20,307 bases of DNA from an archaeon (GTDB lineage: Archaea > Iainarchaeota > Iainarchaeia > Iainarchaeales > JAAZKV01). Positions within the stretch are counted from its first letter, which is position 1; every line of letters begins with the position of its first letter. The position numbers and the translations under genes were made by a program. The stretch spans positions 1 through 20,307 of the forward strand of contig JAVHOV010000010.1 in assembly GCA_036170245.1 (NCBI GenBank), written 5' to 3'. This document shows, piece by piece, positions 5,021-19,164 of the stretch. The notes below the pieces were generated by a model that had not been told where the DNA came from, ran no database searches, and saw only the letters and a program-made list of their open reading frames with translations.

Positions 5021-5755
5021 TTAGTTCATTTTGACTGAACTTGATATATAATTTTCTTTGTCCCAATTAGCTATTCTTTCATTTAATTTTTCTCTAGCAA
5101 GTTTTCTTTTCTCAATAGATAATTGCCTTAGTGCAATTATTGATAATATTCTATAATCTTCTTTTGTTTTGCTCATTCTTCTTAAAGTCTTTGATAAGGT
5201 TTCCATTTTTTCTGTAGGCGTGTGACTCTTTCTTTCTACAAGCAAATCAATATCTATTGGAACAACTCCTGTTTTGTGCCGAAATGGTTCAACAAAATCA
5301 ATAGTCGGACTGTACCCGAGGTTTGCAACTTTTCCAAACATTTTTGCCGCATCTTCTTTTTCTTCTTGGTGAGCAAGTTCAAGGTGGCTCTTCCAAACAA
5401 GTTTTGATCCTTTTTTTGTTGAACCAAATAATTGTGAAACTTGCACCCATTCTCTAGTTGGAATTTTATAATCTCCTATTTTTGTTCCTGCAGGAATTAG
5501 AGTCATTCCCATTTTTGGAATTGGAAGCCCTGCTTCAATTAGATCATTGATTACTTTTTGATATTGTCTTGCTTCTTCAGTAGTTAATCCTTTGTGGAAA
5601 GTTTTTATTGCAACTCTTGGTTTTTTCCCATCCTTAAAGTGCAGTCTTCCGATATAAACGTTCCCTCGGTTTGATCCTCCGATTGTTATAGCATGTGAAA
5701 AATTTACTTTTTTTGCATCAAGAATAGTTTTTAGGGTTGGTTTTTTTGGAATCAA
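5021..5755 (-). CDS. Hypothetical protein with protein-kinase-like N-lobe (atypical kinase or pseudokinase)
   Basis: IGGSNRGNVY resembles a glycine-rich loop and RVAIK matches the beta-3 lysine motif. No canonical HRD/DFG (PTIDF, PIDID instead). TTG start 15 nt after the srp54 stop. Confidence 0.6.
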   Translation of the reverse strand: MIPKKPTLKTILDAKKVNFSHAITIGGSNRGNVYIGRLHFKDGKKPRVAIKTFHKGLTTEEARQYQKVINDLIEAGLPIPKMGMTLIPAGTKIGDYKIPTREWVQVSQLFGSTKKGSKLVWKSHLELAHQEEKEDAAKMFGKVANLGYSPTIDFVEPFRHKTGVVPIDIDLLVERKSHTPTEKMETLSKTLRRMSKTKEDYRILSIIALRQLSIEKRKLAREKLNERIANWDKENYISSSVKMN

Positions 5756-14985: not shown

Positions 14986-15252
14986 TTAGATGATTTCTAT
15001 TTCTTTGATTTTTATTTTTGTTTCATTTAGGTTCAAAAACAAGTTTGGTTCGTTTTGGATAGGGTCTTCTGATAGGTTGAGAAGTCCTCTTAGTCCATCA
15101 AGTTGGTTGTTGTACTCATTTCCAGAGTTTTGATCATTAGTTTGGGTGATGATTCCGCTTATGCCGATTATTACTACTGCAACAACAAGAATCGAAGCAC
15201 CAATCATCAACAAATACTCAAGAGCCCCTTGTGCTTTTTGATTTCTTTTCAT
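14986..15252 (-). CDS. Class III signal peptide protein (small pilin-like)
   Basis: MKRNQKA/QGALEYLLMIGASILVVAVVII: K-A cleavage site, Q+1, E+5 and a hydrophobic helix. Confidence 0.85.
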   Translation of the reverse strand: MKRNQKAQGALEYLLMIGASILVVAVVIIGISGIITQTNDQNSGNEYNNQLDGLRGLLNLSEDPIQNEPNLFLNLNETKIKIKEIEII

Positions 15253-15348
15253 AATATATTTAAGCTTCTTTCTTTTTATTAAACTTAACTTTGAGTATAT
15301 TTTTACGTTAAAGCAAAGTTTATATTAAAGATTTGTATTACTTTGAAT

Positions 15349-15675
15349 ATGAAAAATATTATTTTACTATTAGTTGTTTTAGCTTTGGTTTTTGGGTGTA
15401 CTCAAGAGCAAGGGACTCAAATTAATAATGAAAATAATAAGAATTTAGTTGATTCAAATATTCCTTCAACTCCGTTTTCAGGAACTTTTGGGATTGCTAT
15501 TCACAATCAAATTGTGGCTACTAATAACATAAATAATTGTAGCCAACTTTTAGATCAAAATAAAATAGATGCTTGTGTTTTTGAAATTTCAGTTAAAAAC
15601 AAAAACAAAGATTGGTGTGCTTCAATTGTCAATATTTTGATTAAATCAAAATGCGAATCAGTTATAAAAAATTAA
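15349..15675 (+). CDS. Putative lipoprotein with C-terminal four-Cys motif
   Basis: MKNIILLLVVLALVFG-C lipobox-like start and C-terminal C..L......DAC.......K..WCASI......C. TATA TTTATATT at 15319-15326 supports a leaderless ATG at 15349. Confidence 0.78.
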   Translation: MKNIILLLVVLALVFGCTQEQGTQINNENNKNLVDSNIPSTPFSGTFGIAIHNQIVATNNINNCSQLLDQNKIDACVFEISVKNKNKDWCASIVNILIKSKCESVIKN

Positions 15676-15691
15676 TTTTTCGTGTCTATTT

Positions 15692-16546
15692 TTATTCTGT
15701 TCTTGTAAAACTTAAAGTCATACAATAATTTGAATAATCAATCCTTCCAACTCTATAATATTTTCCTTCTGGTGTTTTAGCACAAAAATAAGTTGTATAA
15801 TAAAAATAATCATATGGTATTTGTGTTGTTGAATAATAAAACCCATCATTTGATCCACAGTTAGGGTAATTGTTAGTTGTTGCTAGTTCAGCCCCATTTT
15901 CTGGAAAAAAGGATCCTACCCAATAGTAGTAGTTATCTTGTATTTTTGCAAAATCTGCTTCTGTTGATCCATAAGGGGTCATATTTCCATTAGTTAAATC
16001 TAGCCAATCTTCTCCATCACAAATATACGCTTGAATTATTGTGCCTAAAGGTACTACTGAACAAAAAGAATCTGAAGCGCAATCCAAATCTTTGCAATCC
16101 ATTGATCCATCTAAATCATCATCAATTTTATTGTTGCACACTTCAACTTTTGTATTATCTAAAAAAGTAAGGTTTTCTTTTGTTATAGTTCCTGACGAAG
16201 TTGTTGTGGTTACTTTTATTGTGTTTCCATTTTTTATGATTGTATTTCCAGTGCAAGTAGTTCCTAAACAAATTGTAACTCCGGTTGAAGTTTTTTGTAA
16301 ATTTTGTATATTAGTATCAGGTCCGCCATATTGCATATACATTGTGCTTTGGTTTTTTATAAAATATAAATTTTTTAGTTCTGCTTGCTGTTTGTCAAAT
16401 GCATCAAAGGTACTTTCATTGTATGTTGATTCTTGTTTTGCCGTATTAAATACTCCTGAAAGTGCAATTATTACAACAGCCACCACAAGTATTGCAGCTC
16501 CTATTATTAGTAAGTATTCTATTGCTCCTTGTCCTTTCTTGTTCAT
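15692..16546 (-). CDS. Class III signal peptide protein (large pilin/adhesin-like) with Asp/Cys metal-binding-type motif
   Basis: MNKKG/QGAIEYLLIIGAAILVVAVV, internal EVCNNKIDDDLDGSMDCKDLDC and a Tyr-rich C-terminal domain. Confidence 0.85.
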   Translation of the reverse strand: MNKKGQGAIEYLLIIGAAILVVAVVIIALSGVFNTAKQESTYNESTFDAFDKQQAELKNLYFIKNQSTMYMQYGGPDTNIQNLQKTSTGVTICLGTTCTGNTIIKNGNTIKVTTTTSSGTITKENLTFLDNTKVEVCNNKIDDDLDGSMDCKDLDCASDSFCSVVPLGTIIQAYICDGEDWLDLTNGNMTPYGSTEADFAKIQDNYYYWVGSFFPENGAELATTNNYPNCGSNDGFYYSTTQIPYDYFYYTTYFCAKTPEGKYYRVGRIDYSNYCMTLSFTRTE

Positions 16547-16571
16547 AATTATAACACTCTTTTTTAATTTA

Positions 16572-17606
16572 TCAATTATCTATTAAATGTTTCATATTTA
16601 CATCATTATAATAATATGAAATTGCAATATTTCCAGTTATTCCTGTTATTTCTCCACTAGCGGGGTTTATCCCAACAATATTATTTTCAATACTGGTTCC
16701 ATATTGGAGGTCATAAGTATATACTCCCCATTCCCATCCTCCATTAATACTATCAGGCATGCCTGATGTAATTTCTAATTCTTTTATTACTGCACATGGT
16801 CCAGACCAACACGTATTGCTGCACATAAAATAATAATTTTCTGCTGTTGAAACATGATATTTTTCTCCTGTTCTTTGTGGTTCATTTTCTGATTTTTCTA
16901 TTGTAATAAAATCGCTTTTCGTTAAGGGTTGCCAACTTCCAGAATAGCATGCATCTAAACCAATGTCTATACAATCTCCCGCCCACCCAAAATCTTTGCA
17001 GCTGAAAGAGGAATTTGTAATAAATGTGCCTCGTTTTGAATTTGGTTTTGCAACGATTGATAATTCAGCTCCATCTTTATACATTGTAATGTCTCCTGAG
17101 GAATATGCATTTACCAATTCTTGTTGGGTTGAAATAGAGTTTCCATTTTTGGTTACAATTGGATAATGTAGAGTATTTGAATTTTGTATTCTTTCATTGT
17201 CTGCAAAGTGTATTTGTGCTTGTACTAAATCTTTTTTACTAATTGTTCCTGCCCCTGTTGTTGTTTTTATGGTTATTACAGTTCCTGGTGGAATTATGGT
17301 GTTATCTGCACATTCATTCCCATTACAAATTTGAACTCCTGAAGAAGTACTTTTCAAATTAGCTATGTTGGTGTCTGCTCCAGAGTACTTATAATATTGA
17401 ATTATGTTTGGTATTAAATAAAATTTATTTAGTGCTTCCGCTTGTTGTTGTTCTAGTGCATTATTGACTCCGCCATTAGGCAATTTTGAATCATCTTTTG
17501 CACTAGTAAATACCCCACTTATCATTAATATTACTATGGCAACAACCATTATTGCCGCGCCAATAACTAATAAGTATTCTATTGCTCCTTGTCCTCTTTT
17601 TTGCAT
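16572..17606 (-). CDS. Class III signal peptide protein (large pilin/adhesin-like), paralog of 15692-16546
   Basis: MQKRG/QGAIEYLLVIGAAIMVVAIV. The first ~125 aa align with the neighbouring gene, followed by a Cys/Trp-rich C-terminal domain. Confidence 0.85.
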   Translation of the reverse strand: MQKRGQGAIEYLLVIGAAIMVVAIVILMISGVFTSAKDDSKLPNGGVNNALEQQQAEALNKFYLIPNIIQYYKYSGADTNIANLKSTSSGVQICNGNECADNTIIPPGTVITIKTTTGAGTISKKDLVQAQIHFADNERIQNSNTLHYPIVTKNGNSISTQQELVNAYSSGDITMYKDGAELSIVAKPNSKRGTFITNSSFSCKDFGWAGDCIDIGLDACYSGSWQPLTKSDFITIEKSENEPQRTGEKYHVSTAENYYFMCSNTCWSGPCAVIKELEITSGMPDSINGGWEWGVYTYDLQYGTSIENNIVGINPASGEITGITGNIAISYYYNDVNMKHLIDN

Positions 17607-17632: not shown

Positions 17633-17941
17633 TTAGTCTTTCTTTTTGCTTTCTAAAGAATATTTTTTTTCATATTTGCAATTGTTGCACTTTACAATCA
17701 AAAAAGGTTCTTTTTTACTAGTTGTAATATCCATTGAAAAGCACTTTCTACAATATTTTTGTTTTAGTTCTTTTGGCACACTTATTCTGCATTTTTCACT
17801 TATTTTTTTTGCAAGTGTAAGGTATCGTTTGACGTATTTGTCATTTTTTGCATTATTCATTTTCTCTGCAAGTTCAAACAGTCTATAGATTCTTTCCAGA
17901 GCAATTTTCTGATTTCCTCTGATTTTCTTTTCTTTTTCCAT
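17633..17941 (-). CDS. rnp4: Ribonuclease P protein component 4 (Rpp21)
   Basis: IALERIYRLFELA...RYLTLAKKIS...PKELKQKYCRKC...VKCNNC zinc-ribbon pattern. Confidence 0.93.
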   Translation of the reverse strand: MEKEKKIRGNQKIALERIYRLFELAEKMNNAKNDKYVKRYLTLAKKISEKCRISVPKELKQKYCRKCFSMDITTSKKEPFLIVKCNNCKYEKKYSLESKKKD

Positions 17942-17980
17942 AATAAAGAATTAGTGATTGGCTTCTTTATTTAACTCTTA

Positions 17981-18016
17981 TGGAGTGTTGATTTTATTTT
18001 AATAATCAACACGCCA
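17981..18016 (-). terminator. Stem-loop downstream of the micropeptide gene
   Basis: TGG-A-GTGTTGATT (17981-17993) pairs with AATCAACAC-G-CCA (18004-18016), starting 17 nt after the stop at 18034. There is no strong U-tract. Confidence 0.4.
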
Positions 18017-18033: not shown

Positions 18034-18114
18034 TTACTTTTTCTTAGTAGCTTTTTTCTTAGCTGTTTTTTTCTTAACAACTTTCTTAGTTGAACAACAA
18101 CAATCGCATGCCAT
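18034..18114 (-). CDS. 26-aa Cys-cluster/Lys-rich micropeptide, not in ORF track
   Basis: Hand translation gives MACDCCCSTKKVVKKKTAKKKATKKK*. SD-like AAGGGGG 8 nt upstream, TATA-like TTTTTATTTAAG at ~18158-18147 and a downstream hairpin. Confidence 0.7.
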   Translation of the reverse strand: MACDCCCSTKKVVKKKTAKKKATKKK

Positions 18115-18210
18115 GGTTAATTCCCCCTTATCATTAAATTAATTTTCTTAAATAAAAACATTTCTCTTCGAGCAGAAAGGATTTTATCCAGTTTGTTCAT
18201 GTTTTATTGT

Positions 18211-18918
18211 ATGGCGTCTAAATTTTCTTTATTGAGAAAAATAGTTTCTCCAAAAATAAGAAGGGGGAAATTTGTTGGGTGGTATTCCCCTTCAATTGGG
18301 GTTGAAGTTCATTCAAAAAGCGGTATTATTTTTTCTCCTTTTGCAAGAAGATTAATCCGAGCAAACCCTAATCTTAGAAGAAATACTTTTAGTGCGTTTG
18401 AGAAAATAAGAGTGAGTGGGGGGGAAGTTTCAAAAAGCGGGAATGTGTTTTTGCATAATCTTCGTGAAGCAAGGGGTAATGTAGGGACTGGATTCTTTAA
18501 ATTAGTCTTGGGTAAAAGAAATTTTTTCTTAAAAGTTATTGAAAATTCAAAAGTTAAGGAGAAGTTTAATCCTTTGAGTGATCTTGCTATTTCCCAGCAT
18601 AATGCGCTTATTGAAGCAAAAAAGGTGATTACAAAAAATAAGTTATCTGATCTTTTCATGGTTGCTGAACCTCATTTTGCTTTTGTTTCAGACAAATATT
18701 CTTTTCAAGTAACTGATTTTTATGATTGTAAAACAGTTGTAGAAATTCAAAAAGGTTCTGATATGGTTCTTTTTGAAGAAGTAAGAAAAAAGGGAATTGC
18801 TTTTGACAAGGGGTTAATTGTGTTAAAGCAAAATGGGTTTTCAGATTTAGGCCCACATAATGCATTTTATTCGCCAAAATTAGGAAAATTTATTCTTTTT
18901 GATTTGCGTTATAATTAG
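18211..18918 (+). CDS. Protein-kinase-like fold hypothetical protein
   Basis: RGNVGTGFF (loop), FFLKV (beta-3 Lys), FSDLGPHNAFY (D..xN catalytic loop) and ILFDL (DFG-equivalent). TATA-like TTTTATCC at 18182-18189 favours ATG 18211. Confidence 0.68.
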   Translation: MASKFSLLRKIVSPKIRRGKFVGWYSPSIGVEVHSKSGIIFSPFARRLIRANPNLRRNTFSAFEKIRVSGGEVSKSGNVFLHNLREARGNVGTGFFKLVLGKRNFFLKVIENSKVKEKFNPLSDLAISQHNALIEAKKVITKNKLSDLFMVAEPHFAFVSDKYSFQVTDFYDCKTVVEIQKGSDMVLFEEVRKKGIAFDKGLIVLKQNGFSDLGPHNAFYSPKLGKFILFDLRYN

Positions 18919-18944
18919 TAAGAATCAGATTTTATTTTTTTAAG

Positions 18945-19015
18945 TGCGCCCGCGGGGATTTGAACCCCGACAAAAAGCTTGGAAGGCTTTTATGCTACCA
19001 TTACATCACGAACGC
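18945..19015 (-). tRNA. tRNA-Gly (anticodon TCC), intronless, CCA not encoded
   Basis: Minus strand GCGTTCG TG ATGTAATGGTAGCAT A AAAGC CTTCCAA GCTTT TTGT CGGGG TTCAAAT CCCCG CGGGCGC A forms a complete cloverleaf with discriminator A. Confidence 0.95.
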
Positions 19016-19164
19016 ATTTTTTGTTCTTTGAATTAATGCGAAGCCTTTTTCGCGACCTTACAAACTTTTGGTTTGCGGGTCAAAAAAAGCAATTGCTTTT
19101 TCGCGAACCTTTTTTTAAAAGGTTCTGCTTGGCATTACATCACGAACGCATTTTGTTTTGTTCT
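18999..19164. repeat. 22-bp exact direct repeat (tRNA-Gly 5' end plus flank) bracketing a palindrome-rich ~110-bp insert
   Basis: CATTACATCACGAACGCATTTT occurs at 18999-19020 and 19133-19154, both followed by TTGTTCT allowing a 3-nt indel. Four inverted repeats lie between the copies. Confidence 0.85.

Follow-up and report, generated by a model that had tools for sequence, protein, structure and literature searches.

We report a real, conserved small gene of 26 codons lying directly upstream of rpp21 in the genome of an archaeon (0.87 Mb, 32.6% GC, 86% complete), within a stretch of 20,307 nucleotides that we refer to as the window. That the host is archaeal follows from Rpp21, class III signal peptides and ribosomal-protein genes of archaeal type; we take it to be a DPANN lineage, probably of the Iainarchaeota. 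The encoded peptide joins a cluster of cysteines to a tail of lysine repeats, and this appears to be an undescribed micropeptide architecture, in which a Lys-repeat polycation carries a metallothionein-like module. Our preferred reading, to which we give a probability of roughly 0.45, is that the micropeptide is a metal-binding polycation.

A conserved small gene upstream of rpp21

The gene and the features around it are as follows.

18034 to 18114, minus strand: micropeptide ORF, 26 amino acids, with an ATG start, a CxCCC head, a short linker and a Lys-repeat tail
18122 to 18127, minus strand: purine-rich ribosome-binding site, 7 nt before the ATG; a G-rich site is found there in all seven syntenic copies
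18149 to 18156, minus strand: TATA-like box, identical in 5 of the 7 syntenic copies
18159 to 18165, minus strand: purine-rich stretch preceding the TATA box, which we take to be BRE-like from the general anatomy of archaeal promoters
17982 to 18015, minus strand: conserved 3' RNA hairpin, with no U-tract after it
17967 to 17974, minus strand: second TATA-like box, 25 nt before the rpp21 ATG
17633 to 17941, minus strand: rpp21 (RNase P subunit, PF04032), a downstream neighbour and not an obligatory partner
18211 to 18918, plus strand: divergent kinase-like orphan gene, found beside 4 of the 7 syntenic copies

The repeat unit of the tail is three lysines followed by two small residues, and the whole peptide (calculated pI 9.98, 2.89 kDa) contains 11 Lys, 4 Cys, 4 Ser/Thr, no His and no aromatic residues. 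A sequence-only reading of this DNA had correctly described a 26-codon ORF with a CxCCC head and a Lys-rich tail, but had counted 14 lysines where there are 11. It had also judged a chance ORF unlikely from composition and signals, which holds overall, although composition alone makes chance only moderately unlikely. Short ORFs with at least 40% Lys number 26 in the real genome, against 1 to 11 in each of eight simulated order-3 Markov genomes; when three Cys in the first 10 residues are also required, there is one such ORF in the real genome and one in total over the eight simulations. Composition is thus not decisive, and we accept the ORF as real because its conservation settles the question.

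A survey of 30 rpp21 loci from relatives, the host genome included, placed the peptide gene directly upstream of rpp21 in three: the host and genomes G012 and G003. The G012 copy occupies the same place and is identical to the host peptide at 23 of 26 residues, compared with 72% identity for its Rpp21; the two ORFs differ by seven base changes in six codons, three of them synonymous. The G003 copy has a GTG start, a longer Lys repeat and one Cys, so the cluster is dispensable there. Four further syntenic copies (L234, L256, L261 and L262) came from a metagenome scan. The seven copies, host plus six, run from 22 to 29 codons with the frame intact in every one, and loss of the frame in relatives had been named beforehand as a possible refutation. 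CxCCC is kept in six of the seven and the tail varies in length and sequence; we count this fixed cluster and variable tail in favour of metal binding.

The opposing view, that the ORF is a chance or untranslated one and that only the hairpin or promoter DNA matters, is highly improbable. It can call on the single similar ORF among the simulated genomes and on the absence of the exact peptide from a collection of 15 billion proteins, in which two neighbouring proteins were found as controls. The frame, start, stop, ribosome-binding site and Cys cluster are nevertheless all conserved, and the Cys-Lys architecture recurs in many unrelated contexts. The same collection also misses Lys-repeat proteins of 69 and 82 residues, so a filter may explain the absence.

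The sequence-only reading recognised no described family and this was borne out, with no Pfam family at E up to 1 and no match in NCBIfam or among PDB sequences, searches in which short low-complexity queries have little power. We found nothing on a Cys-Lys micropeptide family in a literature search whose coverage stopped short of subscription papers and supplements; small-protein catalogues in paper supplements may list such peptides without describing them.

Expression signals and the 3' hairpin

Judged from its position, the upstream TATA-like box would give a short leader containing the ribosome-binding site. A sigma-70 scan, which is uninformative for an archaeal host, gave three sites against 2.7 expected. 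Downstream, the 101 nt from the micropeptide stop onward fold with -22.4 kcal/mol (z -4.2; none of 200 shuffles as good), and an Rfam search returned no family for the hairpin. All 11 of its pairs are kept in six syntenic copies and none is broken, a count that leaves out L261, whose hairpin differs; four pairs show a one-sided change to G-U and one a compensatory change, a pattern more in keeping with a folded RNA than with a palindrome in the DNA. A search for terminator-like sites with a U-tract after the hairpin found none, and the second TATA-like box suggests that rpp21 may have a leaderless transcript of its own. Taken together, the lack of a U-tract and the second box indicate a unit with a stable 3' hairpin rather than a classical terminator. 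The ribosome-binding site, TATA-like box and hairpin of the proposed complete expression unit do lie in the places given by the sequence-only reading.

A kinase-like gene divergent from the micropeptide had been proposed and is indeed present at 18211-18918. Its product has no Pfam or NCBIfam match, and language-model features place it near kinase-like clusters, a lead only. A second orphan (5021-5755, minus) has kinase-like motifs by eye and no Pfam match, and tblastn detected no likeness between the two products.

Other features of the surrounding region deserve mention in their own right. A tRNA-Gly gene lies at 18944-19015 (minus); a second copy of its 5' end is found near 19135-19152, within the 19040-19155 region, and inverted repeats are plentiful between the two. 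Several relatives have insertions in or beside tRNA-Gly, and the genes between tRNA-Gly and rpp21 vary, which suggests an integration hotspot. On the other side, between rpp21 and a run of ribosomal-protein genes, 14986-17606 holds three genes whose starts resemble class III signal peptides, as Pfam confirms for one of them; these genes are fewer or missing in close relatives.

Distribution of the cysteine form in archaea and metagenomes

A pattern search for relatives in archaeal genomes, which had been suggested as a check, found peptides of 16-29 residues that combine a Cys cluster with a Lys-repeat tail. Of the phylum's 215 genomes, 15 from seven families carry one, which is a lower bound. 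The cluster is N-terminal in ten genomes (G000, G012, G039, G068, G072, G074, G110, G112, G131 and G176) and C-terminal in five (G002, G009, G011, G021 and G022), and we take the recurrence of the two modules in either order as a further point for metal binding. Among members some Cys codons are TGT and others TGC, which we likewise count in favour. The same architecture is present at 13 of 53 metagenome loci, the other 40 being dropped for want of a Lys tail or as long ORFs.

Neighbours of the archaeal members are varied (PTH2, NucS, RNase Z-like, diphthamide synthase, glycosyltransferases, a PCC-domain gene, NifU_N and radical SAM), and one member, L251, sits directly after a NifU_N gene, a position that we count for metal binding. 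That the archaeal neighbours are unrelated housekeeping genes counts against the metal-binding reading.

A strict Cys-head pattern, which misses other Cys spacings, matched nine of 401 genomes from the class of a Pacearchaeota genome; none of these matches had a Lys tail, and every one overlapped another gene. On viral contigs the Cys pattern gave one match, inside a longer ORF. Two patterns were too loose and returned mostly chance frames; from one loose pattern, 18 hand-picked sites and 30 loci yielded one new member, G068.

Bacterial members in hydrogenase and cbiM clusters

In the class of a Magasanikbacteria genome the Cys pattern matched two of 251 genomes, one of them truly (G783), and there the peptide gene has a sulfhydrogenase gamma-like gene on one side and cbiM with a PDGLE gene on the other. 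A cbiM homologue is present in nine of 20 genomes of the Patescibacteria family to which G783 belongs; the peptide gene is upstream of it at six of the nine loci, with a small membrane-protein gene intervening in two, and is missing at three. In genome G880 it immediately follows the hydrogenase gamma-like gene. Among the bacterial neighbours are matches to models of sulfhydrogenase beta, gamma and delta and of CbiM, with scores under the curated cut-offs of NCBIfam. A family match to the NiFe large subunit turned up in all five of the bacterial carrier genomes tested.

Queries with cbiM or hydrogenase led to six of the seven bacterial genomes, which are also kin. They are consequently not independent, and we place the weight on three bacterial-looking members found by the peptide pattern alone, all of which lie near genes of these kinds (L278, L407 and L237). 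For L278 and L407 the neighbour was assigned by family match, and for L237 by its likeness to the neighbour of L278, read by eye; L278 and L237, metagenome members that have no ribosome-binding site, are upstream of a hydrogenase beta-like gene. Given sequences of such low complexity, the archaeal and bacterial peptides may be homologous or convergent.

Loci from the family and order of G783 (L439-L459) share a conserved Patescibacteria cluster, in which genes resembling those for sulfhydrogenase beta and gamma stand together with cbiM, PDGLE, an EamA transporter and DUF6390. Three of them (L442, L443 and L447) have before cbiM a gene for a small membrane protein of about 45-50 amino acids, which is also likely unannotated.

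A proposed metal-binding polycation

The sequence-only reading had offered both a metal-binding peptide and a nucleic-acid-binding polycation. Both are plausible, and the bacterial gene context lends support to the former. Look-alikes across the phylum and inside bacterial nickel-hydrogenase clusters make it likely that the peptide binds metal while sitting on nucleic acid. The four clustered cysteines would bind soft metal ions through their thiolates, either within one chain or with several peptides bridged by shared ions. The lysine tail would bind polyanions such as RNA or DNA, keeping the peptide both soluble and in place. Expressed in abundance, the peptide would buffer or store metal on a small scale, much as metallothionein or Hpn does.

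Delivery of nickel to a hydrogenase is unlikely in this host. Neither hydrogenase nor cbiM was found in its 86% complete genome, in searches run with positive controls, and no NiFe large subunit was detected in 22 genomes of its family. Across the phylum there is no enrichment, with a large-subunit match in six of 15 archaeal carriers and in 54 of a sample of 141. In this host the bound metal would more probably be a soft ion such as zinc than nickel destined for a hydrogenase.

Metallothioneins are small and Cys-rich, with their cysteines in CC or CxC clusters and no aromatic residues; SmtA is a bacterial example, and the members have more cysteines than the micropeptide's four. By prediction, the micropeptide resembles the bacterial metallothioneins as a small Cys-rich peptide for soft metals. 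It is unlike them in having four Cys of 26 residues in one CxCCC cluster and about 40% Lys, and it gave no profile or sequence match to the described metallothionein families, a comparison of little power for a short low-complexity query. MymT is named as a copper-sequestering metallothionein (PMC11672702). Hpn is described as a small nickel-sequestering protein missed by annotation, with CC motifs at either terminus (PMC4671568). The micropeptide form shares with the Helicobacter Hpn and HspA modules (PMC4671568) small size, biased composition, omission from annotation, CC motifs at either terminus and a tie to NiFe hydrogenase. Hpn, however, is histidine-rich; the micropeptide has no His and a polylysine tail, and its host has no detected hydrogenase.

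Lysine-repeat relatives without cysteine

Lys-repeat peptides free of Cys are far more widespread than the Cys form. When the phylum's 215 genomes were searched for a start and then the three-lysine repeat, 40 had a match, as against one for the reversed control. Forty-four Lys-repeat ORFs were listed from pattern matches and earlier loci, a ribosome-binding site being required by the filter; 32 are closed ORFs of 12-43 residues. Most of the closed ORFs have, by eye and with no shuffle control, a TATA-like box upstream and a hairpin with a U-tract downstream. The host genome itself holds two such relatives.

G000:C22:12989-13030 (L513), plus strand: 13-residue Cys-free polylysine paralogue
L514 2813-2989 (G000:C6), plus strand: 58-residue Lys-repeat form with a helical-looking head

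The 13-residue paralogue has a TATA-like box, a ribosome-binding site and a hairpin with a U-rich tail, and stands alone near a contig end; before it lie a gene that by eye resembles UDP-glucose dehydrogenase and a divergent gene of 147 aa. Its presence in the same genome marks the Cys form as a distinct type. The 58-residue form belongs to a third type of 58-103 aa, whose conserved, helical-looking head of some 25 residues leads into a Lys-repeat tail of varying length; further members are at L044, L055, L105, L107 and L111, and several genomes of the host's family have them.

In a GTDB scan the Cys-free pattern gave at least 120 loci, and the titles listed include Planctomycetota, Bdellovibrionota, Acidobacteriota, Rokubacteria, Verrucomicrobiota, Bacteroidota, Patescibacteria, Nanoarchaeota, Aenigmatarchaeota and others. 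Among the GTDB matches listed, 81 of 124 are stand-alone ORFs of at most 60 residues; 67 of these have a ribosome-binding site, and no short stand-alone ORF among the matches listed has a Cys cluster. On viral contigs the Cys-free pattern gave 63 loci, some of them short peptides and others N-terminal tails or off-frame matches. The repeat is also fused to the N-terminus of longer bacterial proteins (L142, L215, L231, L170 and L208); judged by eye, three of these presumably have a SWIB-like domain, and two presumably begin like a phosphofructokinase. In an Elusimicrobia record (L179) three polylysine micropeptide genes stand in tandem, and a ribosome-binding site precedes each.

Alternative explanations

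The alternative that we take most seriously, though we consider it unlikely, is a protamine- or Hc2-like condenser in which the Lys tail acts and the cysteines only cross-link chains through disulphides or zinc, raising valency and compacting chromosome or RNA. It differs from the metal-binding reading in which module does the work. The chlamydial protein Hc2 (HctB) and Bordetella BpH1 are described as runs of successive Lys-rich pentamers, spaced by Ala, Val, Thr or Pro and varying in repeat number, and Hc2 is reported to bind both DNA and RNA (PMC2848022); the micropeptide tail is similar in being three to four consecutive Lys-rich pentamers with small spacers. Hc2, however, has 165-237 aa and two basic residues per pentamer (PMC2848022), while the micropeptide has 26 aa, three Lys per pentamer, a Cys cluster and no Pfam match. 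That the Cys-free Lys-repeat peptides form the larger family, that G003 has a Cys-poor form at the same locus and that the host genome has one histone match and no Alba match all speak for condensation, but it leaves the position inside hydrogenase and cbiM clusters unexplained, the host already has a Cys-free paralogue, and the neighbours of the Cys members show no link to chromatin genes.

Regulation in cis is improbable. Here the micropeptide would be a leader ORF, and a ribosome that stalls at its Cys codons, or on a nascent chain carrying metal, would control the gene that follows. A precedent exists in mycobacteria, where attenuation by unannotated leaderless short ORFs with consecutive Cys codons is described, pairing of the Cys tract being shown for one locus and not claimed for all (10.1101/834739). 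The micropeptide ORF is likewise short, with at least two Cys codons following one another, and at five bacterial loci the next start is 16-39 nt past the stop, with a metal transporter among the downstream genes. Unlike the mycobacterial ORFs, it is led by a ribosome-binding site and its Cys tract is unpaired with the next start: over 19 pairs of Cys tract and downstream start region, none exceeded the non-cognate mean by more than about 1.4 sd and ten were weaker. The genes downstream of Cys-Lys members (rpp21, PTH2, RNase Z-like, diphthamide synthase, PCC domain, cbiM and 4Fe-4S hydrogenase beta-like) are, where tested, not cysteine-metabolic, several members are followed by a convergent gene, and rpp21 has its own TATA-like box. 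The Lys tail, moreover, is kept everywhere and would be needless for a pure attenuator. Less probable still is a dedicated partnership with a neighbour, the sequence-only reading having proposed both a substrate of the divergent kinase-like protein and a small RNase P or ribosome subunit. The micropeptide does adjoin both genes in the window, has four Ser/Thr residues and lies beside the kinase-like gene in four syntenic copies, but that gene is absent beside G012, G003 and L261 and accompanies none of the other Cys-Lys members whose neighbours were listed, which leaves the substrate proposal weak. The RNase P association fares no better, given that the peptide precedes rpp21 in just three of 30 loci, that rpp21 has a box of its own and that other members sit in unrelated contexts; Pfam, NCBIfam and the PDB sequences, which gave no match, include known small ribosomal proteins.

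Implications

Returning to the micropeptide as a metal-binding polycation, we tentatively suggest something wider, which we regard as somewhat unlikely: that it belongs to an unrecognised minimal class of metal store or metallochaperone, with a cluster of four to six Cys and a polylysine anchor, present in small-genome archaea and Patescibacteria and recruited into bacterial nickel-hydrogenase clusters. This class would derive from a very large hidden family of polylysine peptides of 12-30 residues spread over many bacterial and archaeal phyla. To our knowledge, few metal-storage or nucleoid proteins are known from small-genome archaea and Patescibacteria. A thiol cluster and a polycation within 16-29 residues would be among the smallest such devices, cheap to synthesise and lying unannotated inside a hydrogenase cluster, and its relatives without cysteine suggest that very small lysine-repeat genes, discarded in gene calling, form a class of wide occurrence.
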